A stretch of 64,000 nt of DNA, from NCBI GenBank assembly GCA_040398075.1, contig JBBAUR010000006.1:22318-86317 (forward strand), written 5' to 3'. Below, piece after piece: positions 42,559-59,306 of this stretch (position 1 is the first letter of the stretch; each line of letters starts with the position of its first letter). The position numbers were made by a program, and so were the translations under genes. Under the pieces are notes generated by a model, which did no database searches, had not been told where the DNA came from, and saw only the letters and a program-made list of their open reading frames with translations. Source of the stretch: Bdellovibrionota bacterium (GTDB lineage: Bacteria; Bdellovibrionota_C; UBA2361; OMII01).

Positions 42559-43164
42559 TTGAATCAAATGGACAGAGCACCCAACCATCCAGGAGTACGC
42601 ATTCATTCGACAGCGCATGTGTCGCCCGATGCCACGATCGGGTCTGGAACAAGCATCTGGAATTTTGCGCAGGTACGAGAAGGGGCTGAGATCGGCACAG
42701 ACTGCATCTTGAGCAAGGGCGTATATATCGATTCAGGGGTAAGGATCGGCAACAATGTGAAGATCCAGAATAACGTGTCCGTTTATCACGGCGTACAGAT
42801 TGAGGACGGTGTGTTCTGCGGGCCTCACTGTGTTTTTACCAACGACCGAATTCCGAGAGCTATCAATCCTGACGGATCACTCAAGTCAGCGCACGATTGG
42901 GTCGTGTCAAAAACTCTCGTCAAACGTGGTGCTTCGATTGGAGCTCACGCTGTACTCGTCTGCGGCGTTACGGTCGGCGAATGGTCGATGATCGGCAGCG
43001 GAAGCGTCGTGACCAAGGACGTGCCTGCGCATGCACTGGTTTTTGGTAATCCGGCCAAGATTCACGGGTATGTGTGTGCCTGCGGTGCTCGTGTGAAGGA
43101 TCCCGAGGTGTCACTGCAGTGCACGGTGTGTAGGACATCTCCGGACAAAGGGTTCGAAGCATGA
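42559..43164 (+). CDS. Hexapeptide-repeat sugar N-acetyltransferase (WbpD-like)
   Basis: Left-handed beta-helix repeats (IGSGTSIWNFAQV..GAEIGTDCILSKGVYID..VRIGNNVKIQNNVSV). Gene order with a WbpB-like oxidoreductase and a WbpE-like aminotransferase. Confidence 0.8.
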   Translation: MNQMDRAPNHPGVRIHSTAHVSPDATIGSGTSIWNFAQVREGAEIGTDCILSKGVYIDSGVRIGNNVKIQNNVSVYHGVQIEDGVFCGPHCVFTNDRIPRAINPDGSLKSAHDWVVSKTLVKRGASIGAHAVLVCGVTVGEWSMIGSGSVVTKDVPAHALVFGNPAKIHGYVCACGARVKDPEVSLQCTVCRTSPDKGFEA

Positions 43165-44177: not shown

Positions 44178-44187
44178 GGGAGGAATC

Positions 44188-45156
44188 ATGGATGTATCGG
44201 ACAAAACGCTGATGTTAGTAGGCGGAGCAGGGTTGGTAGGCTCACATATCCTGGATCAACTACTTTCTGAGGACGTGAAGAAATTGGTCGTTTTCGACAA
44301 CTTCGTGCGCGGAACGCGGTCCAACATCGAAGAAGCGATCAAAGATCCACGAGTGGAAATTATCGAGGGAGACATCCGCAACGCTGCTCAGATAGACCGA
44401 GCTTGTAAGGGCGTGGATGGAGTTTTTCTTCTGTCTGCCCTCTGGTTGCTCCAATGTGCCGAAGATCCCCGATCAGGCCTTGATGTCAATGTGAACGGTA
44501 ACTTCAACGTACTGGAGGCCTGTCGTTTGGCTGGAGTTCAGCGCCTCGTGTACTCGTCTTCTGCATCGGTATACGGGAATGCGCTATCGAGTTCCATGTC
44601 GGAAGATCATCCACTAAACAACCGCACGTTTTATGGTGCTACCAAGGTTGCTTTGGAGCAGATGCTACGCTCGTACTACGAAATGTATAAACTACCCTAC
44701 GTAGCACTACGGTACTTCAACATCTACGGACCGCGACAGGATTACAAGAATGCATACGTGAGTGTCATCATGAAGGTTCTCGACCGTATAGATTCGAACC
44801 TTTCCCCCGTCGTGATGGGCGATGGTAGTCAGGCGTACGATTTTATCTATGTCAAGGACATCGCGAGAGCGAACATCATCGCAATGAAGAGTGCTGTTGC
44901 TGACCAGAGCTTCAACGTGTGTGTCGGAAAAAAGACGAGTATTCGAACTTTAGTTGAGATGCTTCTCGAACTTACTGGTGCCAAGCTGGACATCGAATAT
45001 CAACCAGCTTCCCAGGTTTTCGTTACTGACCGAGTTGGAGATCCTTCTCACGCTCGAGAAGTTCTTGGGTTCGAGGCTTCGGTCCCATTGGTCAAAGGAT
45101 TAGAGGAGTTGATTGCGTGGCGGCGAAGCCGCATAGAGGCCGAGAGAAAGGTATGA
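44188..45156 (+). CDS. NAD-dependent epimerase/dehydratase (UDP-sugar epimerase-like SDR)
   Basis: MLVGGAGLVGSHILDQLL Rossmann; catalytic YGATK. RBS aagggagg. The track ORF starts at 44164. Confidence 0.8.
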   Translation: MDVSDKTLMLVGGAGLVGSHILDQLLSEDVKKLVVFDNFVRGTRSNIEEAIKDPRVEIIEGDIRNAAQIDRACKGVDGVFLLSALWLLQCAEDPRSGLDVNVNGNFNVLEACRLAGVQRLVYSSSASVYGNALSSSMSEDHPLNNRTFYGATKVALEQMLRSYYEMYKLPYVALRYFNIYGPRQDYKNAYVSVIMKVLDRIDSNLSPVVMGDGSQAYDFIYVKDIARANIIAMKSAVADQSFNVCVGKKTSIRTLVEMLLELTGAKLDIEYQPASQVFVTDRVGDPSHAREVLGFEASVPLVKGLEELIAWRRSRIEAERKV

Positions 45157-46289
45157 ACATTCCAGTTACCAAGGCCATCTTCGGAGAGGAAGAAGTAGAA
45201 GCAATACGACAGACCCTCGAGAGTGGATGGGTAGTCCAGGGACCGCGTGTGGCTCAGTTCGAGAAGATGTGGAGCGAGTTTTCGGGAGCGGCCTTCTCGA
45301 GAGCGACGACATCTTGTACAACCGCGCTTCATCTTGCACTCCTAGCGCTCGGGATTGGTCCAGGTGACGAGGTCATAGTTCCTGCATTTACCTGGGTCGC
45401 AACAGCAAATGCAGTTGAATACTGCGGAGCGAAGGCTGTCTTGTGTGATATCGACATCGCGACGTTCAACATTGATCCCGCTAAGATCGAGGAGAAAATT
45501 ACCCCTCAAACGAAGGCGATTATGCCGGTTCACGAGTTCGGCTTGAGTGCCGATATGAACGCCATCATGGCCCTCGCGCATAAGCACAAGCTCAAGGTGG
45601 TGGAGGACGGCGCATGCGCGTGCGGCGCTCTATACGACGGAAAGCATGTCGGTACATTCGGTGACCTGGGTTGTTTCAGTTTTCACCCCCGCAAAGCGAT
45701 CACTACCGGCGAAGGCGGTATGATTACAACCAACAACGAGAGCTATGTCGCAATCATCGACGAACTTCGTTCGCATGGAGCACAAAGTACCGACCTTGCG
45801 CGCCATCAGAGTAGCCACGGTTTCATACTACCCGAGTTCAACCGCCTTGGTTACAACTATCGCATGACTGACATACAAGGAGCGATCGGGATTGAACAGA
45901 TGAAGAGGGTGCGTGGTATTCTCGCGGATCGCCGCCGTCTAGCTAGCCGATACAAGGAGATGTTGGCAGGTCAACGGGGTATAGATCTTCCATTGGAGCC
46001 GAATGGATGCACCCATGTTTATCAGTCCTTCACACTCCTGGTTAAAGAGAGTAACGAGGAGCGCAATCGGATCGCTCTCGACTTGCAGTCCCAGGGAATA
46101 GCAACACGCCAGGGAACTCATGCAGTGCATGCATTAGGCTACTACAAGAGGAAATACAACCTCGTTGAGTCCGATTGTCCACAAGCCTGGAAGGCGGATC
46201 AACAGAGCATGACTCTGCCACTGTACGCGACGATGACGGAAGAAGAGCAAGACTATGTAGTTGAAGCTCTCGTGAAGGCTCTTGGGTAG
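45153..46289 (+). CDS. DegT-family aminotransferase (WbpE-like)
   Basis: MNIPVTKAIFGEEEVEAIRQTLESGWVVQGPRVAQFEKMW...SCTTALHLALLALGIGPGDEVIVPAFTW. ATGA overlap with the upstream gene. Confidence 0.9.
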   Translation: MNIPVTKAIFGEEEVEAIRQTLESGWVVQGPRVAQFEKMWSEFSGAAFSRATTSCTTALHLALLALGIGPGDEVIVPAFTWVATANAVEYCGAKAVLCDIDIATFNIDPAKIEEKITPQTKAIMPVHEFGLSADMNAIMALAHKHKLKVVEDGACACGALYDGKHVGTFGDLGCFSFHPRKAITTGEGGMITTNNESYVAIIDELRSHGAQSTDLARHQSSHGFILPEFNRLGYNYRMTDIQGAIGIEQMKRVRGILADRRRLASRYKEMLAGQRGIDLPLEPNGCTHVYQSFTLLVKESNEERNRIALDLQSQGIATRQGTHAVHALGYYKRKYNLVESDCPQAWKADQQSMTLPLYATMTEEEQDYVVEALVKALG

Positions 46290-46298
46290 CAGTCGCCA

Positions 46299-46910
46299 AT
46301 GATCATCATCATCGACTACGGGATGGGAAATCTCGGCTCAATCATCAACATCTTTAAAAAAATCGGGGTAACAGCAGTTGCTTCCTCGTCGCCCGACGAA
46401 ATAGCCAGAGCCTCCAAATTGATCCTGCCGGGAGTTGGCGCTTTCGATACAGGGATGAAGAATCTTGGGGAGAGCGGGCTCCTGGACCTTCTACACGAGA
46501 AGGTCATCGAGCAAAAAACTCCCGTATTGGGAGTTTGCTTGGGTATGCAGCTCTTGGGACAGTCGAGTGAAGAGGGCAGCTTGTCAGGCTTAGGGTGGAT
46601 CGCCGCCAAAACCGTTAAATTTCGGCTCGACCCTTCCTCACAATTTAAGATTCCACATATGGGTTGGGCGTACGTGACATCAACTCGGCCCAATCGCTTA
46701 TTTTCAGATATGCCCTACAAAGCGCGTTTCTACTTCGTCCACTCCTACCACTTTGTGTGTGATGATCTATCCGACGTAATAGCTACTGCCGACCACGGAA
46801 TCACTTTCTGCGCAGCGATCAATCGAGGTAACATATGGGGCGCTCAATTTCATCCGGAAAAGAGCCATAAATTCGGAATGCTCTTGTGTAAGAACTTTGC
46901 CGAATTGTAG
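46299..46910 (+). CDS. hisH: Imidazole glycerol phosphate synthase glutamine amidotransferase subunit paralogue (HisH-like, WbuY-type)
   Basis: MIIIIDYGMGNLGSI...LPGVGAF...GVCLGMQLL... contains the class-I GATase Cys-His-Glu triad. Confidence 0.9.
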   Translation: MIIIIDYGMGNLGSIINIFKKIGVTAVASSSPDEIARASKLILPGVGAFDTGMKNLGESGLLDLLHEKVIEQKTPVLGVCLGMQLLGQSSEEGSLSGLGWIAAKTVKFRLDPSSQFKIPHMGWAYVTSTRPNRLFSDMPYKARFYFVHSYHFVCDDLSDVIATADHGITFCAAINRGNIWGAQFHPEKSHKFGMLLCKNFAEL

Positions 46911-46919
46911 GAGACCACA

Positions 46920-47579
46920 ATGACCAACAAGCTCGTAATCCTGGGCTGTGGAGGCAACTGCTTCGATATCGTCGATACCGTAGAGGATATCAACAGAGCT
47001 TCCGGAACTAGCACATACGAGGTGCTTGGTTTTCTCGACGATGACCCTCGAAAAGCAGAAGTTACGTACCGTGGCATCAAAGTTATCGGTGGCTTGAAAA
47101 GATCTCAGGAGCTCTCCGAGTGCGTTTTCGTCAATGGTATCGGTAGCCCCAATAACTTTCGCTCAAAGGCATCTATAATTGAATCACTCGGCATACCAGA
47201 GGATCGTTTCATCTCCCTCCTTCATCCTTCGGTGTCTGTCTCCCCTAGCGCATCGCTGTCCTGCGGAGTGGTGGCTTTCCAAAACTGTGTGATTACATCG
47301 AATGTGCGAATCGGTAAGCACGTTATTATGCTCCCTAACTCTGTTATAAGCCATGACTGCATCGTGGGGGACTACTGCTGTATTACAGGCGGCGTCAATA
47401 TTTCTGGTGGCGTGGTGATTGGCGCATCATGTTACCTGGGCTCGAACTGCGCAATCATCCAAAACGTCACTATCGGCCACAATACTATGGTTGGCATCGG
47501 TAGTACCGTGATAGGCAACGTTCCGGCGGATTCTGTTGTAGTTGGCAATCCTGCTCGAGATATACGGACAAGCCGCTGA
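46920..47579 (+). CDS. PglD/NeuD-family sugar acetyltransferase (hexapeptide)
   Basis: N-terminal Rossmann-like LVILGCGGNCFDIVD followed by a C-terminal LbH (IGKHVIMLPNSVISHDCIVGDYCCITGGVNISGGVVIG). Confidence 0.85.
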   Translation: MTNKLVILGCGGNCFDIVDTVEDINRASGTSTYEVLGFLDDDPRKAEVTYRGIKVIGGLKRSQELSECVFVNGIGSPNNFRSKASIIESLGIPEDRFISLLHPSVSVSPSASLSCGVVAFQNCVITSNVRIGKHVIMLPNSVISHDCIVGDYCCITGGVNISGGVVIGASCYLGSNCAIIQNVTIGHNTMVGIGSTVIGNVPADSVVVGNPARDIRTSR

Positions 47580-47599
47580 GAAAGAAGCCTCTCGGACTC

Positions 47600-49429
47600 C
47601 TATTCGGAAGCGGTAAAGGTTCGTAGGAAGTAATCGAGCGCCATTATGGATGCAAGAGGTGCGGTAGCATCAGCAGCACCAGCCTTGTGTTGTGCCCAAA
47701 GTGAGTGAACGTAGGGCACATTTATCCACTGTCTACTCACGAATCGTGGGTCATTGAGAATAGTATCGATCCGCGGAGCCAACAAGTTTCGGAAGATGGA
47801 CTTTCCATCGTAGTAATCATCTACCGGCACACCTTGAGTAATGAGATTCTCTTGGTATCTCAGAAAGCTCGCATATCCGCTGATCTTCGGGATCATGAAG
47901 ACCTCCGGAAACTGAGTCGCTAGAAGCTCTGAGTCCCAGGTGCGAGAAAATTTTAGCTCACTCGGAAGACTGGACATTAATTCTAGGAGTGAACGATCGT
48001 GGTAAAATGGATTGAGTCCCTCGTAGTGGTCCTGCAGCGGCGCATTGAACAGGCCCCACCTCCGACCGGTCTGGGTCATGGCCAGATACTCGAATTTGTC
48101 AGCCGCCGAGATATCCATTCTTGCGAAAAACTGTCTATCGAACGAGGAAGCTGCATTCAAGAGCGCTTGTTGTGCAAAGTCCTGAGCGAGCATGGGTAGC
48201 GTCGAATTTTTTATCTGGCTCAGGATATGAAATACCACCATTCGGTGGAGCCCATCTCCCCTATTTTGTAGGAACCAGTCTGCTGAGATCCCCTCGTTCA
48301 GCACACCCATCTGGAATTTAAAATACGTCGTGGCATAATCCCCGAAAATGTGGTTGCCATTGTTGCCGTTGATTACGAAGTCATACTCACTGCGCAGCTG
48401 TTCAACGGGTAAGGCTTGAGGGAAATAGGAGCAGGGCCACGTTCCATCGTGGATTTCAAGATGTTCAGCTAGCAACTTCTCTGCTTCGGTAATCTGATAA
48501 TTGACAGGCTTCCACGGGATTCCGAGCGCGTGTGCAATTCGGGTAGATGCCCGAGAGTCTGTAGCAGGTTGTCCGTTGAACTGCATCCCGAGCGCATCGA
48601 ATGAAGAGCCGAAAACTCGCTGCATGTAACAGGCTATGATGCGAGAGTCGAAACCACCGCTCAAAAACAGCCCCTTTTTCCCCTTTACACTGTCGAGCTT
48701 AGTTACGCATGCCTCCAGACACCTATCCAGTTCAAGCGCAAAAGCGGCAGAGGATACCTCGCGGCCTATGCGCTTCTGATACGGAATTCTCCAGTACTGC
48801 TTGGTGCTACGACCCGAACGATCCCACCTGACGAATGTGCCAGCTTCGAGGCTTTTTACGTCTTCCAGGAACGTTTTGTCTCCCCAGGGTTGTCCGAGGA
48901 CTAGGTAATCAGCGATCGCCTTCCAATCGACACCGATCTTTACCCAGGGGCACGCTTTGAAGGCCTTGAGTTCAGGCGCAATCAGAATGTGGCCTTCATT
49001 GTCGCTGTAGTAAAATGTGTGTAGATGCCCATAGCAGTCGCCTACAAGGTAGTGAGTCTTAGTGGCAGAATCCGACAGGAAAAAGACGAAGCTACCGTCA
49101 GCCTTCGAAAAGAAACTTTCGCCCATCCTTTCAAAACCGTTGAGGACGATGAAGCTGTCGCTGGAATCCGCGGGCAGGCGCAGGATTTTTGCAAGGTTAG
49201 CACGATTCGAGAGGTATCCTTGAAACACACATGTGACCCCGGATTGTAGAGTGGCCAGGGGAGCGCGCTGGACTTGAGACCGAACCCCTACTAGGCCGAT
49301 ACTACCCGCGCTCGTCGTGGTGTGGACATGTGAGAGGACATCGGTACGGCAGAGAGTCGACGCGATCTTGTGTGCATCGGAAGCCGCACTTTCTACACCT
49401 ATAATCGCAACTATTCCGGACATTTGCAC
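47600..49429 (-). CDS. Asparagine synthetase (glutamine-hydrolysing) family amidotransferase (WbpS-like)
   Basis: AsnB fold with PP-loop LFLSGGFDSRIIA. The N-terminus is MQMSGIV rather than the canonical MCGI, so it apparently lacks the Cys nucleophile. Confidence 0.8.
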   Translation of the reverse strand: MQMSGIVAIIGVESAASDAHKIASTLCRTDVLSHVHTTTSAGSIGLVGVRSQVQRAPLATLQSGVTCVFQGYLSNRANLAKILRLPADSSDSFIVLNGFERMGESFFSKADGSFVFFLSDSATKTHYLVGDCYGHLHTFYYSDNEGHILIAPELKAFKACPWVKIGVDWKAIADYLVLGQPWGDKTFLEDVKSLEAGTFVRWDRSGRSTKQYWRIPYQKRIGREVSSAAFALELDRCLEACVTKLDSVKGKKGLFLSGGFDSRIIACYMQRVFGSSFDALGMQFNGQPATDSRASTRIAHALGIPWKPVNYQITEAEKLLAEHLEIHDGTWPCSYFPQALPVEQLRSEYDFVINGNNGNHIFGDYATTYFKFQMGVLNEGISADWFLQNRGDGLHRMVVFHILSQIKNSTLPMLAQDFAQQALLNAASSFDRQFFARMDISAADKFEYLAMTQTGRRWGLFNAPLQDHYEGLNPFYHDRSLLELMSSLPSELKFSRTWDSELLATQFPEVFMIPKISGYASFLRYQENLITQGVPVDDYYDGKSIFRNLLAPRIDTILNDPRFVSRQWINVPYVHSLWAQHKAGAADATAPLASIMALDYFLRTFTASE

Positions 49430-49609
49430 CTCCGCGGCAGGGCTCCCGTAATAGACTGTGGCCCCTCATTTTGATGCAGTAGATCCTCTGCACGATTTCG
49501 AAATCTGTACTTTGAGCTGCCACACACGACTCCCGCCGCATCCTAAGTTCTTGGGGGAGCAATCCCTGTGACGCGTCAATGGTGACGACTACGAATATTT
49601 ATTTCTCAT

Positions 49610-50377
49610 ATGTATCGCGCTCGAGTTATGCCCTGCCTCCTCTTAAAAGATGGGGTCTTGGTGAAAACCGTGAAGTTCAAGAACCCCACGTACGTTGGGG
49701 ACCCGGTCAATGCCATTCGGATATACAACGAACTGGAGGTGGACGAATTGGTCTTCCTCGATATTACCGCCACCGCCGGTGGTAAGAAGCCTCCCTTCAA
49801 AGTCCTAGCTGAAATCGCAGATGAATGCTTCATGCCACTTGCCTACGGAGGGGGTATCCGTAGCCTCGAGGAGGCGCGCACTATCTTTAGCCTCGGCTTT
49901 GAGAAGGTCGTGTTGAACACGGCTGCTTTTGAGCAGCCCGAATTAGTGCGAAGCATCGCCGAGACCTTCGGCAGTCAGAGTATCGTGGTATCCGTAGACG
50001 CTCGTGCTAAATTACTCGGGGGTTACGAAGCCTATGTTCGCAACGGACAGGTCAGTACCAAAATGGAGGTCGTCCGATATGCAAAACGCGCCGTTGAATT
50101 AGGTGCCGGTGAGCTTCTTCTCTATTCAATCGATCGCGATGGCACTCACTCTGGCTACGACTTATCTCTCATTCAACGGGTTACCGCTGCAGTATCAGTG
50201 CCTGTAGTCGCATGTGGTGGAGCACACAGCGTAGAAGATTTCGGACGTGCCGTTCATCAGGCAGGCGCTTCGGCATGCGCGGCAGGAAGTATGGTTGTTC
50301 ATTTTGGTCCTCACCGGGCGGTGCTGATCAACTTCCCAGATGCACAGGTAATTGACAGAGAGCTCACACGTCATTAG
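49610..50377 (+). CDS. hisF: Imidazole glycerol phosphate synthase cyclase subunit paralogue (HisF-like, WbuZ-type)
   Basis: MYRARVMPCLLLKDGVLVKTVKF...VGDPVNAIRIYNELEVDELVFLDITA...(beta/alpha)8 HisF signature. Confidence 0.9.
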   Translation: MYRARVMPCLLLKDGVLVKTVKFKNPTYVGDPVNAIRIYNELEVDELVFLDITATAGGKKPPFKVLAEIADECFMPLAYGGGIRSLEEARTIFSLGFEKVVLNTAAFEQPELVRSIAETFGSQSIVVSVDARAKLLGGYEAYVRNGQVSTKMEVVRYAKRAVELGAGELLLYSIDRDGTHSGYDLSLIQRVTAAVSVPVVACGGAHSVEDFGRAVHQAGASACAAGSMVVHFGPHRAVLINFPDAQVIDRELTRH

Positions 50378-50621
50378 CCACGTCTCCCGAACCGTACCTC
50401 TCTAGCGCTTGTCCAGAGATGTGCGCTAAATGCAGGTGAATCCAACTGGTTAAGCAGCCACTGCGCCATTTCTACCGGACGATTTTCTCCGCTGAGTTTC
50501 GAGAAACGAACCCTTGAAACCCGTCATCTTATGAAAAATACAGGTGTTACCAGCGCTGTGTTGCGAGAACTGTCGATTGTCGGCTTACCGTGTTGGCATC
50601 GTTCATGAGGAATCTCGACCT

Positions 50622-51686
50622 ATGTCTAGAATTAAAGTAGCTCAGATCGGAGTCGGTTATTGGGGTCCAGCGCTGCTTCGCAACCTGGCTGCAAACCGAC
50701 GCTGCGAAGTGGTCGCTGTCGCCGATCTTTCTGCCGAGCGAAGGGATTTCGTCAAAGAGAGCTTTCCCGCTATTCCGGCTATAGATGATCCGAGCTTTAT
50801 CTTCAACGACCCCGAAATCCAGGCAGTCGTCATAGCCACACCTGCGGCAACTCACTACGAACTAGGCATGAGGGCACTCGAGGCGGGTAAGCACATCCTG
50901 GTAGAGAAGCCGATGGCAACCTGCGTGAAGGAGGTACAGAAGCTCGGCCTGGCAGCGCAAGAGCGAGGGCTTACTGCTATGGTAGGTCATACATTCGTGT
51001 ATCATCCCGCCGTTCACTATCTTCGTGATATCATAAATCTAGGAGAGCTCGGCCAAGTTCGTTACGTTTACAGCCAGCGCTTGAATCTCGGCCGTATAAG
51101 ATCAGACTGCGATGTTTTGTGGAACCTTGCACCTCACGACATTAGTATCGTTCAGTTTCTATTGGGAGATCCCGTCCCATTGTCTGTCCAGCGCACCGGG
51201 ATGGATTACGTCCAACGGGGAATAGATGACGTGGTTTTCGTCAACATCATGTATCCCAACCGCGTCATGGCTCACTTTCACCTCTCCTGGCTAGATCCGA
51301 ATCGCACCAGATGCCTCACGGTAGTAGGATCAGAGAAGATGGCGATCTACGACGACACGAAGGAAAATAAGATCGCGATTTACGATAAAGGTATCGACCG
51401 TCTTCATTCCCTCGACAAAAACATGGATTACGACCGACCTTCCTTCAACCTTCGAACGGGCAAGGTCTATGAGCCGCAGGTCAAGATGGAGGAGCCTCTG
51501 GCCATCGAAGTCGCTCACTTTCTCGATTGCATCGAGCGCGGTATCGAATGCTGGACGGGCCCGGAACACGCCTCAAAGGTTGTGAAGATCTTGAGCGATT
51601 GCGGTACCACCGCCCCCGCACAGGCCACAGATTCGACTCGGCTAGATACAGGTGCTTGTGAAATTCCGAAAGAAGTTTGGCGCTAG
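50622..51686 (+). CDS. Gfo/Idh/MocA-family oxidoreductase (second copy)
   Basis: MSRIKVAQIGVGYWGPALLRNL; VEKPMATCVKE. Start set at the Met following a 26-codon spurious extension. Confidence 0.85.
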   Translation: MSRIKVAQIGVGYWGPALLRNLAANRRCEVVAVADLSAERRDFVKESFPAIPAIDDPSFIFNDPEIQAVVIATPAATHYELGMRALEAGKHILVEKPMATCVKEVQKLGLAAQERGLTAMVGHTFVYHPAVHYLRDIINLGELGQVRYVYSQRLNLGRIRSDCDVLWNLAPHDISIVQFLLGDPVPLSVQRTGMDYVQRGIDDVVFVNIMYPNRVMAHFHLSWLDPNRTRCLTVVGSEKMAIYDDTKENKIAIYDKGIDRLHSLDKNMDYDRPSFNLRTGKVYEPQVKMEEPLAIEVAHFLDCIERGIECWTGPEHASKVVKILSDCGTTAPAQATDSTRLDTGACEIPKEVWR

Positions 51687-51706
51687 TACATTAGTTGGTA
51701 AACGTT

Positions 51707-52813
51707 ATGAAGATCCCCTTCGTTGACCTTAAAGCCCAATACGAGTCGATAAAAGCCGAAATTGACCACGCAATCGCTAGCGTGATTGACGAGACAGCTT
51801 TCATCAAGAGTCCCTACATCGCCGCTTTCGAGAAAAGCTTTGCGGAGTATCTGGGTATCGAACATTGCATTGGTTGTGCAAATGGCACGGATGCTATCGA
51901 AATCGCACTTCGCGCGCTGGGAGTAGGTGCCGGCGACGAGGTCATTGTACCAGCGAACACCTGGATATCGACCGCTGAAGCCGTAACCACTGCGGGTGCA
52001 AAGGTGGTATTCGTCGACAACCATCCTGAGCTGTATACTATTGACGTATCGAAGATCGAAGCCAAGATCACTGCCCGCACGAAAGCAATCATACCGGTTC
52101 ATCTGTACGGATTGCCTGCAGAGATGGACGTCATTATGTCGTTGGCAGCCAAATACAACCTCAAGGTCATCGAGGATTGTGCCCAATGCCACGGCGCCAC
52201 GTACAAGGGCACGACGACGGGCACTTTCGGAGATATCGCAACATTCAGCTTCTTCCCAGGTAAAAATCTGGGAGCATACGGGGACGCAGGGGGTATCGTG
52301 ACGAGTAATCAGGAGCTCGCAAGAACGTGCCGAATGGTCGGTGACCACGGACGCCTCGGTAAGTACGATCACGGGCTGGAAGGCAGAAACAGCCGCCTCG
52401 ATGGCCTTCAAGCGGCGATTCTGAGTGCCAAACTTCCGCACTTAAAGCAGTGGACCAAGGCACGTCAAGACAACGCTGCTTGCTACGATCACTATCTGTC
52501 TAACCTCGACATCCAGCGCCCTATCTGTCCAGAGTATTCGAGGCATGTGTACCATCTGTACGTCGTACAGGTTCCCAATCGCGAACAGGTGCAAGAACGT
52601 CTGCAGGCGCGAGGGATTGCTACCGGGATCCACTATCCGATCGCTCTTCCCCTGCTGAGTGCCTACCAATACCTAGGACATAGCGCGGCCGATTTTCCAG
52701 TCGCTGCCGGTGGCATGAATCGTATCTTGTCACTTCCAATGTACGCAGAGATGACCGAAGAGAAGATCAAGTACGTGGTCGACGCGCTCGCAGACGCTCT
52801 CTCTACAAACTAG
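51707..52813 (+). CDS. DegT-family sugar aminotransferase (third copy)
   Basis: MKIPFVDLKAQYESIKAEIDHAI...CANGTDAIEIALRALGVGAGDEVIVPANTW. Confidence 0.9.
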   Translation: MKIPFVDLKAQYESIKAEIDHAIASVIDETAFIKSPYIAAFEKSFAEYLGIEHCIGCANGTDAIEIALRALGVGAGDEVIVPANTWISTAEAVTTAGAKVVFVDNHPELYTIDVSKIEAKITARTKAIIPVHLYGLPAEMDVIMSLAAKYNLKVIEDCAQCHGATYKGTTTGTFGDIATFSFFPGKNLGAYGDAGGIVTSNQELARTCRMVGDHGRLGKYDHGLEGRNSRLDGLQAAILSAKLPHLKQWTKARQDNAACYDHYLSNLDIQRPICPEYSRHVYHLYVVQVPNREQVQERLQARGIATGIHYPIALPLLSAYQYLGHSAADFPVAAGGMNRILSLPMYAEMTEEKIKYVVDALADALSTN

Positions 52814-52831: not shown

Positions 52832-54199
52832 ATGCGTTTCCTTCAGATCTTTTCATTTTATCCGGAATACCTGAATCACTGGTACCACCAACACCCCGAT
52901 CTCCTGCAACAGCCCTACGAGACTCAAGCGGAACGCCTTTTCGCCGACGGATTCTCTGCGTCTCACCTCTTTTGGCTCGAACTGAAGCGCTTGGGATGCG
53001 ACTCCAGATGCATAGTCGCGAATTGTGAGCCGATGCAGAAAGCATGGGCGCGCGAGCATGGCTACGAGGTAGCCGGTAGAAACTGGTCGATGGAGATACT
53101 GAAGAAACAGATCGAAGATTATCGTCCAGATATCCTCTACTCGTGCGATCCGATCACCTTCGACTCGAGATTCTTACGTTCCCTCTCAGTACGCCCTCCC
53201 CTCGTGGTCGGTTGGAGGGCTGCTGGTGTCCCGGCGTGGAGCGACTTTACCGAGTTCGACCTCATGCTATCGAGTGACCCTGTATCCCCTGAGCTGTGCA
53301 AGAAGCAAGGAGCACGAGCTACGCGCCATTTCCTGCCCGGCTTTCCGAAATGGGTCGCTGATGCAGTCAAAGATGAGCCGAAGGCTCATGATGTCGTATT
53401 CTGTGGGCAATTCAGCCACGAGCATCTCAAAAGAGTGACACTCGCAGAGCAACTATCGCTGTATGCTCGCCAGAGCGGGGAATTCACCCCAGCATTTTTC
53501 GTTTATAAGGCGAGTGATTGGAGATTTCAGTACGCCACTCCGTTCGTGAAGACTGAACGATGGGGGCTCGATATGTATCGGGAGATCCGACGAGGCAAGA
53601 TCGGCTTCAATAATGTCATCGATTTCGCCAAGGGTGAGTCCGGCAATATGCGACAATTCGAAGTAACAGGATGTGGCACCTTTCTTCTCACTGAATATCA
53701 TGATTCCTTACTCGAGCACTTCATACCAGGACGGGAAATAGAGACCTACTCTTCATTCGACGAACTCGTAGAGAAGATACGATTCTACTCGCACAATGAC
53801 GTTGCGCGTGAAGAGATCGCCAGACGGGGCCAAGAGCGGTGTCTGCGCGAGCACGGTATGCTCCATAGGACTCAACAGCTTGTCGACATCCTATCTCATT
53901 TTCTCGGAAATATCGGCTCATCTGTGTCGTCTGAGCCGATTACGCCCCTGGACGAGCTACTAAATTCGTCCGTTCAACTGATTTCAAGTAACAACATAGA
54001 GGAGAGCTATCGTACTGCTTTGAGAGCTCTGCGGTATTATCCTCGAGGGCGACATGTACATTACTTATTAGGGCTGGGCCTTCTTCGCATGCAGCGAGCT
54101 GAAGAGGCTTACGATGCCTTCTCGCGCGAGGTTGCTCTCTTTCCGGACAACAGAGATGCGTGCGAACTCTTGAGAACACTGGATCAAGTACGCACGTGA
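52832..54199 (+). CDS. CgeB-like glycosyltransferase with a C-terminal TPR region
   Basis: Central and C-terminal region resembles the CgeB/spore-maturation glycosyltransferase family (DVVFCGQFSHEH...GCGTFLLTEY...). TPR-like C-terminal helices. Confidence 0.6.
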   Translation: MRFLQIFSFYPEYLNHWYHQHPDLLQQPYETQAERLFADGFSASHLFWLELKRLGCDSRCIVANCEPMQKAWAREHGYEVAGRNWSMEILKKQIEDYRPDILYSCDPITFDSRFLRSLSVRPPLVVGWRAAGVPAWSDFTEFDLMLSSDPVSPELCKKQGARATRHFLPGFPKWVADAVKDEPKAHDVVFCGQFSHEHLKRVTLAEQLSLYARQSGEFTPAFFVYKASDWRFQYATPFVKTERWGLDMYREIRRGKIGFNNVIDFAKGESGNMRQFEVTGCGTFLLTEYHDSLLEHFIPGREIETYSSFDELVEKIRFYSHNDVAREEIARRGQERCLREHGMLHRTQQLVDILSHFLGNIGSSVSSEPITPLDELLNSSVQLISSNNIEESYRTALRALRYYPRGRHVHYLLGLGLLRMQRAEEAYDAFSREVALFPDNRDACELLRTLDQVRT

Positions 54200-54325: not shown

Positions 54326-55477
54326 CTAGCTTTCTCGTGATTTCAACACAATCTCCGAGGCTCGCGTGAATGCTATGCTCCGTGGCGGAATATTTTTCAC
54401 AACGACACAGCCCGAGCCTACAATTGAGTGCTCTCCTAGCACCAGGCGAGGTTCGACGAAGACCCCCGTGCCGAGCTTGATCTCGTCCTCGATCGTCACT
54501 GAGCCCGATGTCATGACACCCGGTCCGAATGTACAGTGACTACCAACTATGTTGTGGTGCTCGATATTGCAATGCGCTGATATGAAATTATTACTTCCGA
54601 TCTCTGCGCAGGGGCCCACCGTAACGTTCGCTAGGATCACGTTACCATCTCCGAGCGCGGTCTCTATACCGATATAAGCACTCCGATGGATTACGTTCAC
54701 CAGCGGGATGCCCGCATCCCGCAATTTCTCAAAAACCTCCTTGCGAACGGAGATTGAGCCTGAGACGGATATTACAGCAGCGTCGAAGAGACCACGTGCA
54801 AGATCGGCTTTCATGGCAGCGGCGTCGACGCTTCCACATACAGGGATACCATAAATGCTCTGTCCATGCTTCGAGCTCTCGTCGTCATAAATACACACCG
54901 GACACAGGGAGCTTCCAACCATTGCATCGAGAACCTGAATGAAGGCCTTTCCTCCTCCGACGACGGCTATACGGCGAAAACGATTCGTGTTCGGAGAACG
55001 CGCAACCACTGCATCACGAGCGGAGCGGCGACTCGTCGAGAGGATGAAGTCATTTACTATCTTTTCGGTAATCAGTGCTTGCGAAAATACGCTGGGATTT
55101 ATGCCATGACTATCGAGTAGCTTCTTTGCCTTGGCAGTTATCGTTTTAGCTGAATCTCCGGCTGATTGAGGAGATCGCGACTCGACGACAGGAGCAAGTG
55201 CGCGTTGGTACTCGGCCGCATCTGCTTCCGCATAGCGCTCGAGTACGAGAAAGAGTCCTTGATTGACCTGAACCATGTCTCCCAAGGAATGTGAGGTGAC
55301 AAACACACCATCGGTCTCGGCATGAACTTCGTAGGAGGCTTTACTGGAGTCTAGTGTCATGACGAGATCGCCCCTCTTCACTCGTTCTCCGTTCGAAAAG
55401 CGTATCTCGGCTACCTTGTAGGTGGCATCGTTGACATTCAACTGCTCGCAACGCTGTATGTTGGTCTCGTGGATCAT
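54326..55477 (-). CDS. Chimeric E2-like protein: lipoyl domain + E3-binding (PSBD)-like segment + PglD/NeuD hexapeptide acetyltransferase domain
   Basis: N-terminal lipoyl-attachment motif VMTLDSSKASYEVHAETDGVFV. Linker with a PSBD-like AKAKKLLDSHGINPSVF. C-terminal NeuD/PglD-like RIAVVGGGKAFIQVLDA plus LbH repeats. Confidence 0.75.
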   Translation of the reverse strand: MIHETNIQRCEQLNVNDATYKVAEIRFSNGERVKRGDLVMTLDSSKASYEVHAETDGVFVTSHSLGDMVQVNQGLFLVLERYAEADAAEYQRALAPVVESRSPQSAGDSAKTITAKAKKLLDSHGINPSVFSQALITEKIVNDFILSTSRRSARDAVVARSPNTNRFRRIAVVGGGKAFIQVLDAMVGSSLCPVCIYDDESSKHGQSIYGIPVCGSVDAAAMKADLARGLFDAAVISVSGSISVRKEVFEKLRDAGIPLVNVIHRSAYIGIETALGDGNVILANVTVGPCAEIGSNNFISAHCNIEHHNIVGSHCTFGPGVMTSGSVTIEDEIKLGTGVFVEPRLVLGEHSIVGSGCVVVKNIPPRSIAFTRASEIVLKSRES

Positions 55478-57450
55478 ACCATCTCTTTGATTAGCCGCTT
55501 GATAGTAGCTACGCTCGGCAAAAGAGTTAACTCCCCGGCGTGAGAGCTCGGAATCACGGAATTATTGCCGATCCGGCGAAATTCTTGAATAGGTGTTTTC
55601 ACCTCAGTAAGCGCTGCTACTACCTCGGCGCCTAGAGCGGCAAAACTCGGGCCTTCTTCGACCACCAGAAGTCGTTTGGAGCGTTGCACCGACTCAATGA
55701 GAGGCGTCAAATTGAGGGGCTGTATTCGCGTAGGAGCTATCAGCTCGACTGATATCTCCTCCTCGAGGAAGGCCTCCTCGAGGGCTCTTTCGCAGTCCCA
55801 CAGCGTACCTCCGTAGCAAAATAGAGTTATCGCAGCACCAGCTGCGGGTTCTCTGGGTGATATGCGTAGGGTTGGATACTGCTCGTCAGAGAGCCAATAG
55901 GTGTGAGTTGCATTCATAGCCTCATTGAGAAACCGTCCATAGTCGAGCTTGTTCTCGATGAAGAGGGCTGGGGACTTCGAGCACTTGAACCAATGTCCGT
56001 AGAGCTCGGTCGGGTCAACGCGGTAGTTGGGCGCTATTATCTCCAAATGCGACGCTCCGAGAAAAAGACGCTCGAGCGACTGGGAATGCGTTGGGCCGTA
56101 GCCACGTTTGCCACCCATCGGAGTACGCAGCATGAAGGGTAGCGGAATTCGCCGCCCATACATGCCCTGGATCTTGCATGCCTGCTGCAGGATCTGATCA
56201 ACTACGAGGGTCGTGAAATCACCGAACATGATTTCTGCGACAGTTCGTACACCACTGAGGGCCATACCGATACCGAGCCCTACAACACCGGCTTCGCTGA
56301 TAGGCGTGTTATTGACGCGGCTTGGAAAAAGAACGCTCAGATCCTTCGTAACCTTGAAGGCTCCACCGTAAGAGCGGGGATTAAACTCGTTTCTGTCCTC
56401 GATATCCTCGCCAAAGATGTGCAGGAGCTCGTCGCACTCTAACGCGCCCCGAAGGGTCCGATAAATTCCCTCATTCAAGCGGATCGATTCGTCCGATAGG
56501 GTCAGCGCCTTATACTTGCACTGTGTATTGTGTATCAATTCCGAGACATTCGGCGAGGTGAGAAGCGGATCTTGTGTGACCGCAGTAAGAATGTGCTGTA
56601 GTTCGGCCTCCACTTCCTGGGTAAGGGACGAAAAAAGCTCAGGCTGCTGCAAGGCAAACTGGTTAATTGGATCGCGCTCGACAAAAGTACGAACCTCATC
56701 GGGATTCCGATTGTCGTCCCCTTTCGAGTGCGAGTTCAGTCGATAGCAATCGATCTCGATGAAACACGGCTCACACGATCGGGTCTTCTGGACCGCTTCT
56801 GCCACTGTTGTATTCAGTCGTTCAGGCTCCCAGATCGACCCGCTGAAAAAGTGGATACCGAAACCCGTTACACGCGCATTGAGGTCGCCCCGAAATGTTT
56901 GGCGGGCGCTCGTCGATTGGGCATAACCGTTATTCTCGAGCACGAAGAGTGTAGGAGCCTTGTAGAGAGCTGCTAACTGTAACGCCTCGTACAGCACGCC
57001 CTCGCCGAGAGTTCCATCGCCGAGGAAGACAACTGATATCGGCTCCGTTTCTGGTGCGATCTGCGAGCGTCCGAGTGAAAAGCCTACTCCGACCGGCGCA
57101 AACCCCCCTTGGATACCGTTACTGAAGAACCCCTCGCCTAAGAGATGCTGGCTTCCTCCATATCCTCCAGAGCAACCAGACGCTCGCCCCATTACCTCCG
57201 CGAGTAGGCCACGTAGGTCTCCAGTTTTAGCGAGATAATGTCCGTGTCCTCGATGGTTCGAAAAGAAGGTGTCTAAGTCCTTCATGTGCTGTGCTAGCAC
57301 AGCAGGAATAAGCTCCTGACCCACGCATGTATGCACGGTACCGTTCAGCTTGCCCTCTGCAAACAGCTTGAGTAGGAGCTGCTCAAAGTGGCGGATGGTG
57401 ATCGCTGTTTTCCAAACCTGCGGTGTGATCATGTAAAATGTCGGCTTCAA
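55474..57450 (-). CDS. TPP-dependent 2-oxoacid dehydrogenase E1 component, fused alpha-beta subunits
   Basis: Alpha-type TPP motif FLGDGTLGEGVLYEALQLAALYKAPTLFVLENNGYAQST. Beta-type SEAGVVGLGIGMALSGVRTVAEIMFGDF and a transketolase-C-like tail. 658 aa. 4-nt overlap with the downstream E2-like gene. Confidence 0.85.
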   Translation of the reverse strand: MKPTFYMITPQVWKTAITIRHFEQLLLKLFAEGKLNGTVHTCVGQELIPAVLAQHMKDLDTFFSNHRGHGHYLAKTGDLRGLLAEVMGRASGCSGGYGGSQHLLGEGFFSNGIQGGFAPVGVGFSLGRSQIAPETEPISVVFLGDGTLGEGVLYEALQLAALYKAPTLFVLENNGYAQSTSARQTFRGDLNARVTGFGIHFFSGSIWEPERLNTTVAEAVQKTRSCEPCFIEIDCYRLNSHSKGDDNRNPDEVRTFVERDPINQFALQQPELFSSLTQEVEAELQHILTAVTQDPLLTSPNVSELIHNTQCKYKALTLSDESIRLNEGIYRTLRGALECDELLHIFGEDIEDRNEFNPRSYGGAFKVTKDLSVLFPSRVNNTPISEAGVVGLGIGMALSGVRTVAEIMFGDFTTLVVDQILQQACKIQGMYGRRIPLPFMLRTPMGGKRGYGPTHSQSLERLFLGASHLEIIAPNYRVDPTELYGHWFKCSKSPALFIENKLDYGRFLNEAMNATHTYWLSDEQYPTLRISPREPAAGAAITLFCYGGTLWDCERALEEAFLEEEISVELIAPTRIQPLNLTPLIESVQRSKRLLVVEEGPSFAALGAEVVAALTEVKTPIQEFRRIGNNSVIPSSHAGELTLLPSVATIKRLIKEMV

Positions 57451-57968: not shown

Positions 57969-59306
57969 ATGACTATTTGGGACGATGTAGATCTCATCAA
58001 GCATTCCGTAGGCGATACCCCACACTCGGTAGATACGATTTACCAATACTTACAGCCACGGGTGCGCGAGGCCCGAGTGGTAATGTTCGGTGAGGCAACT
58101 CACGGCACGGAGGATTTTTACGTCATTCGCGCGGAACTCACCAAGAGGCTCATCGAGGAGCACAGCTTCAACCTGGTCGCAATCGAAGCCGACTGGCCCG
58201 AAGCTTATGGTGTCAACCGTTTTGTGAAAGGCCGTGAAGGTGCTGTATCCGCCACCACCTCTCTCGGATTGTTTACGCGCTTTCCAACGTGGATGTGGGC
58301 CAACACCGCTGTGCACTCATTCATCCAATGGCTGCGGAGTTATAATGATGTGCGGGCCGAGAGTCAGCGTGTTGGGGTCTATGGTTTGGATCTCTATAGT
58401 CTCTTCAGCTCACTGGAGTCTGTGCTTGGGTATCTCGAGGTAGTAGACTCTGCGGCGGCACGCAGGGCTCGGGATCGCTACTCTTGTTTCGAGCACTACG
58501 CGAGCGATGCACAGAGTTATGGTTTTGCGTCGAGCCTTGGGTTGGCTACGGGCTGCGAAGAACGTGCCATCGAACAGCTACAGGAGCTACGAGCGCACAG
58601 ATGGGAGTATCTCCTCTCGAACGGGCTTCTGGCAGAGGATGCTCAATTTAGCGCAGAACAAAACGCCACTATCGTAGTCAATGCTGCAGCGTACTATCGA
58701 GCCATGTTCAGGCAGCCACACGTGACCTGGAACCTTCGTGATACGCACATGTTCGATACCCTAACAGCACTGATGCAACACCAGGAAAGGTTGGGGCGAC
58801 CTGCACGCGCCGTAGTTTGGGAGCACAATTCCCATATCGGGGACTCACGGGCAACTGAATTTACACAGCGCGGACAGCTCAACATCGGTCAATTGGCGAG
58901 GCAGAAGTTCGGCAACGCTTGTTGTCTGGTAGGCTTTACGACGTACGAGGGTGAAGTTATTGCCGCACCCGAGTGGGGTGCAGCAGGAGAAATCGAGGTG
59001 GTCAGAGAGGCACTCCCTGGGAGTTACGAGGATCTCTTTCACCAGGTGGGAGCCCAACAGTTTGTTGTACCCCTCCGCGGTTCCACCCCCCTATCGCTTA
59101 TGCTCGCACGGCCACGTCTCGAACGCGCTATCGGTGTTGTCTATCACCCACATACCGAACGGTACAGCCACTACTTCAACGCTCGATTGAGCGAGCAGTT
59201 CGATGCAGTGATACACGTCGATACTACACATGCGGTTACTCCGCTCGACGTTAAACAGGAGCCTCGACTAGAGGAACCTCCGGAGACCTTTCCCAGCGGT
59301 ATATAG
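57969..59306 (+). CDS. Erythromycin esterase-family (Ere-like) protein
   Basis: VVMFGEATHGTEDFY...VAIEADWPEAYGVNRFV...VVWEHNSHIGD are typical of PF05139. Confidence 0.7.
   Translation: MTIWDDVDLIKHSVGDTPHSVDTIYQYLQPRVREARVVMFGEATHGTEDFYVIRAELTKRLIEEHSFNLVAIEADWPEAYGVNRFVKGREGAVSATTSLGLFTRFPTWMWANTAVHSFIQWLRSYNDVRAESQRVGVYGLDLYSLFSSLESVLGYLEVVDSAAARRARDRYSCFEHYASDAQSYGFASSLGLATGCEERAIEQLQELRAHRWEYLLSNGLLAEDAQFSAEQNATIVVNAAAYYRAMFRQPHVTWNLRDTHMFDTLTALMQHQERLGRPARAVVWEHNSHIGDSRATEFTQRGQLNIGQLARQKFGNACCLVGFTTYEGEVIAAPEWGAAGEIEVVREALPGSYEDLFHQVGAQQFVVPLRGSTPLSLMLARPRLERAIGVVYHPHTERYSHYFNARLSEQFDAVIHVDTTHAVTPLDVKQEPRLEEPPETFPSGI

Follow-up and report, generated by a model that had tools for sequence, protein, structure and literature searches.

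A fused E1 and a lipoyl–left-handed β-helix protein as a candidate lipoyl-arm acylation module for amino sugars in bacterial and archaeal glycan loci

We analysed 64,000 nucleotides of DNA from a Bdellovibrionota bacterium (contig JBBAUR010000006.1, positions 22,318–86,317 of the forward strand; the whole stretch is called the window here) and, within it, two adjoining minus-strand genes in a glycan biosynthesis island. The upstream gene encodes an E1 component of the 2-oxoacid dehydrogenase type, dependent on thiamine diphosphate (TPP); the downstream gene encodes a fusion of a lipoyl domain, a segment resembling a peripheral-subunit-binding domain (PSBD) and a left-handed β-helix (LbH) acyltransferase. 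A preliminary description of this DNA had reported the two genes as overlapping, and both open reading frames (ORFs) were present at 55474–57450 and 54326–55477 with a 4-bp overlap, ATGA, in which the stop codon of the E1 gene shares letters with the ATG of the lipoyl–LbH gene. The E1 start is ambiguous: TTG at 57450 gives 658 residues, and ATG at 57432, six codons in and the choice of a metagenome gene caller, gives 652. No obvious Shine–Dalgarno sequence precedes either start, and a promoter and terminator scan around the pair gave counts not above those of shuffled sequence. The genes and the parts of their products, with the evidence for each, are as follows.

55474–57450, minus strand: fused E1 α–β, TPP-dependent (Pfam E1_dh, Transket_pyr and Transketolase_C)
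56653–57402, minus strand: E1 α-like, TPP diphosphate-binding part, residues 17–266 (alignment to human PDHA1)
55543–56472, minus strand: E1 β-like part, residues 327–636 (alignment to 3duf_B)
54326–55477, minus strand: lipoyl / PSBD-like / PglD-type LbH acyltransferase fusion, 383 residues (Pfam, TIGR03570, AlphaFold model, PerB superposition)
55193–55477, minus strand: lipoyl domain, residues 1–95, with the unusual N-terminal motif NVNDxxY and a D-S-S-K46-A hairpin (Biotin_lipoyl, hhalign, model)
55340–55342, minus strand: codon of Lys46, the predicted lipoyl-lysine (conservation; translation checked)
55037–55144, minus strand: diverged PSBD-like segment, residues 112–147, ITAKAKKLLDSHGINPSVFSQALITEKIVNDFIL (alignment with canonical PSBDs)
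54329–54985, minus strand: PglD_N-like nucleotide-sugar-binding domain and LbH, residues 165–383 (TIGR03570, PerB profile, Foldseek)
54557–54559, minus strand: codon of His307 (IEHHN), counterpart of the PerB catalytic base His141 (alignment; translation checked)

Pfam searches placed E1_dh at residues 17–266 (E = 2.6e-35), Transket_pyr at 327–504 (E = 2.4e-17) and Transketolase_C at 537–636 (E = 3.6e-12) of the window E1. All three domains lie in one chain, and the ORF therefore encodes an E1 with α and β fused, as the preliminary description had it for the 658-residue product. Scores against the NCBIfam models of pyruvate dehydrogenase (PDH) fall far below the cut-offs (E1 α, 174 versus 394 bits; E1 β, 132 versus 321 bits). 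The α-like part carries the motifs S-N-H66-R-G-H-G, G144-D-G...E172-N-N174 and H241-S-K-G-D245, which 37 of 38 partner E1s keep without change at every position; the remaining one has a gap. His241 aligns with His263 of human E1 α and with His271 α of Geobacillus stearothermophilus. In the β-like part, alignment to 3duf_B identifies Glu386 as the TPP-activating glutamate and His455 as the counterpart of G. stearothermophilus E1 β His128; both are invariant in all 38 partner E1s. His128 has been proposed to act in the reductive acylation of lipoate (PMC2663715).

The 383-residue protein was predicted by AlphaFold with a mean pLDDT of 86.7 and comprises three modules: a β-sandwich (residues 1–95), a small helical unit (112–147) and a Rossmann-like domain with an LbH (165–383). 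Two linkers with pLDDT below 50 part them. The Pfam family Biotin_lipoyl matches residues 22–76 above its cut-off (24.8 versus 22.1 bits) and is present in 33 of 33 diverse family members. Lys46 lies between the strands 38–43 and 48–52 of the model. This lysine, which stands in an (E/D)(S/T)SKA motif, is invariant in all 33 members and in a mixed alignment with true E2s. Lys46, at the tip of a β-hairpin, is the predicted lipoyl acceptor. The relationship to E2 proteins extends over the whole N-terminal region, the family profile matching lipoyl domain 3 and the PSBD of Escherichia coli PDH E2 (7b9k) with E = 2e-26.

Where a classical E2 would have its chloramphenicol acetyltransferase (CAT)-like core, the chain continues into a sugar acyltransferase. 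Pfam gave no match to the 2-oxoacid_dh core (PF00198) in the protein. The NeuD/PglB/VioB family TIGR03570 matches residues 170–370 (E = 9e-39), its 133.1 bits lying under the curated cut-off of 160.8. Foldseek superposed the C-terminal module of the model on the perosamine N-acetyltransferase PerB (4ea7) with a TM score of 0.89, normalised to PerB, and a root-mean-square deviation of 1.9 Å, and also on PglB-ATD, VioB and PglD. The family profile matches PerB 4ea7 with E = 1e-29, and Pfam detected PglD_N in 17 of the 33 members. His307, invariant in all 33, aligns with the position changed in the PerB variants H141N and H141A (4eaa and 4eab). The preliminary description had assigned a lipoyl domain to the N-terminus and a NeuD/PglD-type LbH to the C-terminus, and domain searches and model bear out both assignments. 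Other catalytic domains fused to the lipoyl/PSBD module were sought with an N-terminal-only profile, which gave only two weak matches.

The same description had also placed a PSBD-like segment between the two. Homology to true PSBDs is supported by alignment: the sequences grade from the canonical archaeal ASPAAKRVAREQKIELHQIPATGPGGRIVESDVWDYL to the shortened ITAKAKKLLDSHGINPSVFSQALITEKIVNDFIL of the window protein, and the PSBD of a rhizobial E2 also aligns. An archaeal member of the family carries a canonical PSBD in its LbH protein (E3_binding, E = 2.9e-13). Pfam did not detect E3_binding in the window protein, and only 3 of the 33 family members score as such; Ala117 of the segment is invariant in all 33. 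On this gradation, the helical segment derives from a true PSBD and has become shortened and diverged. Its partner may be E3, may be E1, or it may bind neither.

Homologues of the lipoyl–LbH protein were collected by a word-indexed search, a profile search run exhaustively over 1.84 billion cluster representatives and a scan of one genome per species. The first returned 138 proteins, nearly all 370–390 residues long and most of them with precomputed Biotin_lipoyl and Hexapep matches. In the second, about 1,045 representatives of 50%-identity clusters reached E ≤ 1e-30; scores exceed 298 bits throughout the top 150, which are mostly full-length (360–395 residues). The lipoyl–LbH architecture is common to several hundred protein clusters or more. 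The scan gave 80 loci from many bacterial phyla and two archaeal metagenome-assembled genomes (MAGs). Its bacterial hosts include Bacteroidota (several Chryseobacterium species, Chitinophaga, Saprospiraceae and Bacteroides cutis), Chloroflexota, Planctomycetota, Acidobacteriota, Armatimonadota, Actinomycetota (Actinoplanes cyaneus and Allorhizocola), Alphaproteobacteria (Roseibium) and Verrucomicrobiota (Pelagicoccus mobilis). Among the carriers available in culture are Chryseobacterium hispalense DSM 25574, Pelagicoccus mobilis KCTC 13126, Bacteroides cutis, Actinoplanes cyaneus NBRC 14990 and Acanthopleuribacter pedis KCTC 12899. A chance fusion or an assembly artefact was ruled out by the hundreds of full-length homologues and by the presence of the same locus on an independent metagenome contig.

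Of the 66 informative loci, which have 2.3 kb or more of sequence ahead of the lipoyl–LbH gene, 64 carry an E1 gene directly upstream of it and on its strand. Within a subset of 38 loci the partner E1 is fused in 18 and split into α and β in 20. Judged by this pairing, the E1 and the lipoyl–LbH protein are to be regarded as a conserved module and not as a chance fusion; genes for sugar aminotransferases and 3-dehydrogenases accompany it in most loci. Four loci have no intact E1 upstream. Two of them (L022 and L072) encode the lipoyl–LbH protein without one, L072 retaining two short E1-like ORF fragments of 173 and 107 residues; in the other two (L034 and L046) the upstream sequence is short and the adjoining genes encode GT2-type glycosyltransferases or multi-pass membrane proteins, as judged by sequence with no family search. 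In these four the E1 may be encoded elsewhere or may have been lost.

Public annotations call members of the family 'sugar O-acyltransferase', 'isoleucine patch superfamily' or 'biotin/lipoyl-containing protein', and we found no curated NCBIfam model that covers the lipoyl–LbH architecture. Nor did we find a description of it in the literature searched, most papers in subscription journals lying outside that search, so that a recent account may have been missed. This agrees with the statement in the preliminary description that its author knew of no such architecture for glycan tailoring, and the pairing of E1 with a lipoyl–LbH protein is apparently undescribed so far.

The partners that a 2-oxoacid dehydrogenase complex or an assembly line would require were sought by tblastn. 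The queries were four CAT-like E2 cores, three acyl carrier proteins (ACPs), an Lpd, a LipA and a LipB, and the search covered the window and 82 loci. No CAT-like E2 core was found in the window or the 82 loci with any of the four queries. An ACP beside the pair was likewise absent from all of them, the only weak ACP-like match lying about 7 kb downstream in one locus (L038). Lpd, LipA and LipB were found in two archaeal loci only, and a regular-expression search for the redox-disulfide motif of Lpd agrees with the tblastn result. The two archaeal loci are:

CAZOPZ010000001.1, 3040–14034: locus L080, from a Methanosarcinales MAG
DATDWF010000084.1, 36–10297: locus L059, which begins at a WecB-like gene and was characterised by ORF layout and by tblastn for LipA, Lpd and LipB only

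The gene order in L080 is GT2, WecB, LipA, Lpd, LipB, E1 α, E1 β, the lipoyl/E3_binding/PglD_N/LbH protein, DegT, a 3-dehydrogenase-like oxidoreductase of the GFO family and GT2. The archaeal operon proteins score above the respective cut-offs for LipA (352 versus 310), Lpd (416.6 versus 408.8) and LipB (115 versus 83.6), and E1 β also passes. Because these archaeal glycan operons carry their own LipA, LipB and Lpd, lipoylation and redox cycling of the lipoyl domain appear to be required. The lipoylation genes look dedicated to a surface-glycan pathway and not to central metabolism, and their presence is the strongest single argument for a lipoyl-arm mechanism.

Glycan genes surround the pair in most other lineages as well. 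All ORFs of the loci were clustered, family searches were run on representatives, and context was counted over the 53 loci of at least 15 kb. The commonest neighbour is a DegT-type sugar aminotransferase (34 of 53), often directly beside the pair, followed by a UDP-GlcNAc 3-dehydrogenase-type oxidoreductase of the GFO/MocA family (28 of 53) and an epimerase/dehydratase (27 of 53). FdtA 3,4-ketoisomerases occur in five loci, and flippases, glycosyltransferases, methyltransferases and WbuX/HisH/HisF amidotransferase sets recur. In one locus (L001) the order is RmlB-like, RmlA-like, GFO, FdtA, FdtA, E1, lipoyl–LbH, methyltransferase, DegT and flippase; no other hexapeptide-type acyltransferase is found among the genes called in this 21-kb stretch, and the lipoyl–LbH protein thus sits in the slot usually taken by FdtC. 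In Chryseobacterium the order is L-2-hydroxyglutarate oxidase, DegT, E1, lipoyl–LbH and GFO.

Three further features of these neighbourhoods deserve mention. The L-2-hydroxyglutarate oxidase of the four Chryseobacterium loci (L005, L007, L009 and L011; gene at about 5700–6900) scores 542 bits against a cut-off of 299. In pathways with WbpB-type 3-dehydrogenases, 2-oxoglutarate is reduced to 2-hydroxyglutarate, a cycle that Larkin and Imperiali are said to have described in 2009. The Chryseobacterium oxidase may recycle the 2-hydroxyglutarate, which fits a 3-oxidation and 3-transamination of the WbpB/WbpE type. About ten loci have a gene for an S-adenosylmethionine-dependent methyltransferase beside that for the lipoyl–LbH protein, and in nine it follows directly downstream; the methyltransferase is of the Methyltransf_23 type in L001–L004 and L061 and TylF-like in L038, L056, L063, L067 and L069. 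Its target could be the sugar or the acyl group, where a glycolyl, for instance, might be O-methylated. Finally, in seven loci of Caldilineae/Chloroflexota MAGs (L006, L013, L017, L023, L024, L025 and L032) DegT and GFO are replaced ahead of the pair by an aldo-keto reductase gene and, in most loci of this subgroup, a type II pantothenate-kinase-like (Fumble) gene; the best NCBIfam match of the reductase is L-glyceraldehyde-3-phosphate reductase, below cut-off.

The preliminary description had set the pair of the window among DegT aminotransferases and sugar-modifying genes, and the neighbouring genes are consistent with this:

41031–42293: WbuX, above cut-off
46299–46910: HisH-like protein of an acetamidino set
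47600–49429: AsnB-like amidotransferase
49610–50377: AglZ/HisF2-like protein, above cut-off
50544–51686, plus strand: GFO/IDH/MocA oxidoreductase, UDP-GlcNAc 3-dehydrogenase-like (Pfam; NF040723, 137.6 bits, below cut-off)
51695–52813, plus strand: DegT-family sugar aminotransferase (Pfam DegT, E = 2e-115)
52832–54199, plus strand: glycosyltransferase-like protein with a tetratricopeptide-repeat tail, last gene of the plus-strand glycan operon (Pfam Glyco_trans_1_2, E = 2e-27)

The oxidoreductase at 50544–51686 belongs to the cluster present in 28 of the 53 large loci and is the probable maker of a keto-sugar; the DegT protein at 51695–52813 is the probable maker of the amino-sugar acceptor. 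A second complete set of hexapeptide, GFO, epimerase and DegT genes lies at 42559–46289, with a WbpD-like hexapeptide transferase at 42559–43164, and the same island holds a PglD-like transferase (46920–47579) that passes the TIGR03570 cut-off (182.7 versus 160.8 bits). The region 41031–50377 contains a complete acetamidino-forming set of WbuX, HisH-like and AglZ/HisF2-like proteins in addition to the AsnB-like protein. The products of the island are probably several diamino sugars that differ in their N-modification. Two large ORFs at 39772–41142 and 36629–38521 gave at most a marginal Glyco_trans_1_2 match in Pfam and none in NCBIfam; the former, which starts with TTG, overlaps WbuX by 112 nt and has 420 residues according to the metagenome gene caller. 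On the other side of the pair, an erythromycin-esterase-family gene (57969–59306; Pfam E = 2e-124) stands divergently beside the E1 gene. A single RNA gene, a tRNA-Thr(CGT) at 20947–21019, was detected in the whole window.

To place the window E1 among characterised enzymes, it was compared by tblastn with annotated plasmids. The best annotated relative is RenH from the renieramycin cluster of Ca. Endohaliclona, a fused E1 of 673 residues (39.5% identity over 99% of the query, 482 bits). RenI, encoded after RenH, has a lipoyl domain and a 2-oxoacid_dh core. The next matches are E1 pairs from Streptomyces, Nonomuraea and Paenibacillus; the inspected Streptomyces (H6) and Paenibacillus (H10) pairs lie in clusters for non-ribosomal peptide synthetases (NRPS) and polyketide synthases (PKS), and the Streptomyces record has the order ACP, E1 α, E1 β and E2. 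Thermus AcoAB (230 bits) and a rhizobial E1 with a normal E2 (259 bits) are more distant. According to Peng et al. (2012, PNAS), as summarised in PMC6335953, PMC7570522 and PMC13249901, QncN/QncL/QncM and their counterparts (NapB/NapD/NapC, RenH/RenI and SclQ1-4) combine a two-component transketolase, a lipoyl-E2 and an ACP that supply NRPS lines with a C2 glycolyl unit derived from ketose phosphates; QncN/RenH-type enzymes are reported to remove a C2 glycolaldehyde unit from these substrates (PMC6335953, PMC13249901). RenH/RenI is assigned the same role as the QncN/QncL cassette in PMC13249901.

A neighbour-joining tree of E1s, distance-based, with 200 bootstrap replicates and few outgroups and with AviB, Pau, PDH and branched-chain 2-oxoacid dehydrogenase (BCKDH) sequences not included, separated AcoAB, the rhizobial E1 and the archaeal partner E1s from the bacterial partner and Qnc-like E1s in 200 of 200 replicates. 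RenH grouped with the fused-E1 clade that holds the window E1 in 199 of 200, and no replicate placed the Qnc-like E1s outside the partner family. The Qnc-like E1s (L083–L086, from renieramycin, Streptomyces and Paenibacillus plasmids) branch at two places within the glycan-associated family and were monophyletic in none of the 200 replicates. This suggests repeated exchange of an E1/lipoyl cassette between glycan and NRPS/PKS pathways. Bacterial partner E1s share ten signature positions with their Qnc-like relatives, and the outgroups differ at all ten; the active-site residues that could be verified are the generic catalytic ones. The lipoyl proteins are related too: hhalign matched the N-terminal lipoyl/PSBD-like region of the family to the N-terminus of the QncL-like E2 from Streptomyces (probability 99%, E = 2e-18), and both have the unusual motif NxNDDxY in place of the usual E2 N-terminus. 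Two systems thus share an E1 and lipoyl-arm cassette and diverge in the transferase fused behind the arm: a CAT-like core acting on an ACP thiol in one, an LbH with a nucleotide-sugar domain in the other.

Taken together, these features make it probable, in our judgement, that the pair is a self-contained, CoA-independent acyl-donor and acyltransferase module that tailors a nucleotide-linked amino sugar. We infer every chemical step of the mechanism in silico, by comparing architecture, residues, pairing, context and relatedness. The E1 would assemble a C2 or other short unit in activated form on its TPP and pass it oxidatively to the dithiolane of lipoyl-Lys46, giving an S-acyl-dihydrolipoyl thioester. 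Swinging on its flexible linkers, the lipoyl domain would carry this thioester into the LbH active site of the same protein, which by analogy would be a trimer. There His307 would deprotonate the sugar amino group, and the amine would attack the thioester to yield the N-acyl amino sugar and the dihydrolipoyl arm. Re-oxidation of the arm would fall to an E3 dihydrolipoyl dehydrogenase, a housekeeping enzyme in this organism and operon-encoded in the archaeal versions. The acceptor in the window is probably a UDP-2-acetamido-3-amino-type sugar made by the adjoining 3-dehydrogenase-like and DegT proteins; in other loci it would be a dTDP-3-amino-3,6-dideoxyhexose.

Within this general mechanism, glycolyl from a ketose phosphate is our leading guess for the acyl group, a tentative one that falls short of an even chance, because three points speak for a group other than acetyl: the machinery is costly, transferases of the acetyl-CoA type are already present in the island and the E1 is placed with C2-hijacking enzymes. 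Acetyl from pyruvate is a somewhat doubtful candidate, and another short acyl group is about as doubtful. For the archaeal systems, whose E1s are PDH/Aco-like, a conversion of pyruvate to acetyl is quite possible. The preliminary description had proposed a CoA-independent route from E1 through lipoyl arm and LbH to an amino sugar, with a 2-oxoacid such as pyruvate as donor. The route is strongly supported by comparison, through the pairing in 64 of 66 loci, the lack of an E2 core or ACP, the DegT or GFO genes beside most pairs and the archaeal LipA, LipB and Lpd; the donor is the questionable part, the E1 lying robustly inside the clade that holds the enzymes of QncN/RenH type, a nearest system that had gone unnamed.

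Several observations weigh against the proposed mechanism. No gene for E3, LipA, LipB or LplA was found in the window, and divergence keeps the PSBD-like segment there from scoring as E3_binding. The two genes run towards the glycan operon from the opposite strand and lie outside it. Recognisable sugar genes (DegT, GFO or FdtA) were not found by clustering in 12 of the 53 large loci, and the acceptor is possibly not always a sugar because of them; 8 of the 12 are Chloroflexota, with an aldo-keto reductase gene, a type II pantothenate-kinase-like gene or both, and in this subgroup the acceptor, or the supply of the donor, may differ. The archaeal partner E1s group with Aco/PDH-like and not with QncN-like E1s, so that the donor may vary within the family, and the phylogeny itself is distance-based with few outgroups. 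Lastly, the LbH domain might still bind acetyl-CoA.

The last point leads to an alternative in which the LbH is an ordinary acyl-CoA-dependent sugar N- or O-acetyltransferase fed indirectly by the E1 and lipoyl parts, or stands in for the E2 core by moving the acyl group off the lipoyl arm onto CoA, the acyl-CoA so formed serving this or other enzymes. To our knowledge, all characterised members of the PerB/PglB/PglD family use acyl-CoA; the C-terminal domain closely resembles these enzymes in structure, and our analysis gave no sign that a CoA site had been lost. A pure lipoyl-to-CoA transferase, however, would not be expected to keep a PglD_N-like domain and the catalytic histidine, and a CoA relay would be an extra step without evident benefit. 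Direct delivery is what the covalent fusion of arm and transferase in hundreds of lineages, with E1 alongside in 64 of 66 loci, points to, and we consider the CoA-dependent alternative unlikely. Lipoyl-arm transfer might instead proceed as proposed but to a sugar hydroxyl, an O-acylation as in NeuD, or in some lineages to a non-sugar. The NeuD family includes O-acetyltransferases, as its name implies, and the large loci lacking sugar genes and the convergent orientation in the window would suit such an acceptor. Yet DegT is the commonest neighbour and often adjoins the pair, the nearest solved relatives (PerB, PglB, VioB and PglD) are all amino-sugar N-acetyltransferases, and in FdtA and WbpB-like contexts the lipoyl–LbH protein fills the N-acetyltransferase slot; a different acceptor class is also improbable on this evidence.

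Less likely still is a role for the E1 as a branched-chain-sugar enzyme, joining the C2 unit of pyruvate to a keto-sugar by TPP carboligation, with the lipoyl–LbH protein functionally separate. Precedent comes from the AviB1/AviB2 and Pau11/Pau12 types, E1 α/β homologues that have been suggested to attach acetyl branches at C-4 of keto-sugars during avilamycin and paulomycin biosynthesis (PMC4753412), and dehydrogenases and dehydratases that form keto-sugars are encoded nearby. Such a role leaves unexplained both a lipoyl domain with an invariant lysine always encoded beside the E1 and the LipA, LipB and Lpd of the archaeal operons. It also sits poorly with the retention of both histidines, including the one proposed for reductive acylation of lipoate (PMC2663715), and with nearest annotated relatives of the lipoyl-using QncN/RenH types, in a comparison that left AviB/Pau sequences outside. 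Least credible is an ordinary catabolic operon for acetoin, pyruvate or branched-chain 2-oxoacid dehydrogenation that happens to lie beside glycan genes: the best NCBIfam matches of the E1 are the PDH E1 α and β models, and the lipoyl and PSBD-like parts resemble E2, but those models are far below cut-off, a CAT-like E2 core is lacking from the protein, the window and the 82 loci, no E3 gene lies in the window, and conservation of the glycan context spans phyla. This reading, which the preliminary description had itself raised with close relatives in mind, is in effect ruled out by the missing E2 core.

We know lipoic acid as the cofactor of only a handful of central-metabolic complexes and of the rare QncN/L natural-product cassette. 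Should lipoyl-arm transfer to amino sugars hold, a lipoyl arm that directly feeds a sugar N-acyltransferase would be a new role for the cofactor in glycan biosynthesis, and LbH acyltransferases would gain a third class of acyl donor besides acyl-CoA and acyl-ACP. Unusual N-acyl groups, possibly N-glycolyl, would be predicted for the surface polysaccharides of bacteria and archaea, many of them uncultured and some in culture, and the lipoylation genes in some anaerobic archaeal genomes would be explained. The two proteins would form a compact tool for CoA-independent acylation of amino sugars. A lipoyl-dependent glycan tailoring built from known parts and Qnc-like in its working would surprise specialists on lipoate and on glycans alike. 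It is conceivable, if rather speculative, that a widespread and hitherto unrecognised lipoyl-arm pathway, without CoA or ACP, puts N-glycolyl (C2 units that a QncN-like E1 takes from ketoses of the pentose phosphate pathway) or other non-acetyl groups on the nucleotide-linked amino sugars of bacterial and archaeal surface glycans, and that the QncN/QncL cassettes of tetrahydroisoquinoline antibiotics are offshoots of this glycan module in which the LbH has been swapped for a CAT-like core.

Among known systems, the Qnc cassettes offer the closest parallel. They too have a dedicated PDH-E1-like TPP enzyme, fused in RenH, encoded beside a protein that starts with a lipoyl domain, and in both a TPP-built acyl unit would pass by the lipoyl arm to a biosynthetic acceptor and not to CoA. 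Unlike them, the window pair has a PerB/PglD-type LbH with a nucleotide-sugar domain instead of the CAT-like 2-oxoacid_dh core, stands among glycan genes with neither an ACP partner nor an NRPS/PKS context, and presumably acylates a sugar amine where the Qnc cassettes acylate a phosphopantetheine thiol. With PDH, AcoABCL and BCKDH the pair shares a heterotetramer-type E1 with the TPP motif, the activating glutamate and both catalytic histidines, a lipoyl lysine at a hairpin tip, a PSBD-derived segment and, in the archaeal operons, E3, LipA and LipB. It differs in having no E2 acyltransferase core, so that no acyl-CoA product is expected, in an E1 well below the PDH family cut-offs and in a context that is biosynthetic rather than catabolic. 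Like NeuD, PglD, PerB, VioB and PglB-ATD, the lipoyl–LbH protein combines a Rossmann-like N-domain with an LbH, has the catalytic histidine (His141 in PerB, His307 here) and is accompanied by DegT genes. In contrast to those enzymes, the family has some 165 additional N-terminal residues, lipoyl and PSBD-like, and an obligatorily adjacent E1, its window member stays under the TIGR03570 cut-off (133 versus 160.8 bits), and its predicted donor is its own acyl-lipoyl arm rather than acetyl-CoA. The pathway as a whole resembles the routes to 3-acetamido sugars by WbpB/WbpE/WbpD, by the archaeal UDP-GlcNAc 3-dehydrogenase, aminotransferase and acetyltransferase, and by FdtA/FdtB/FdtC, in which oxidation or isomerisation, transamination and N-acylation follow one another, and GFO with DegT or FdtA with DegT flanks the pair, with an L-2-hydroxyglutarate oxidase in Chryseobacterium as a further likeness. 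Where those routes end with a small acetyl-CoA-dependent LbH enzyme, the third step here would be carried out by the E1 and the lipoyl–LbH protein.

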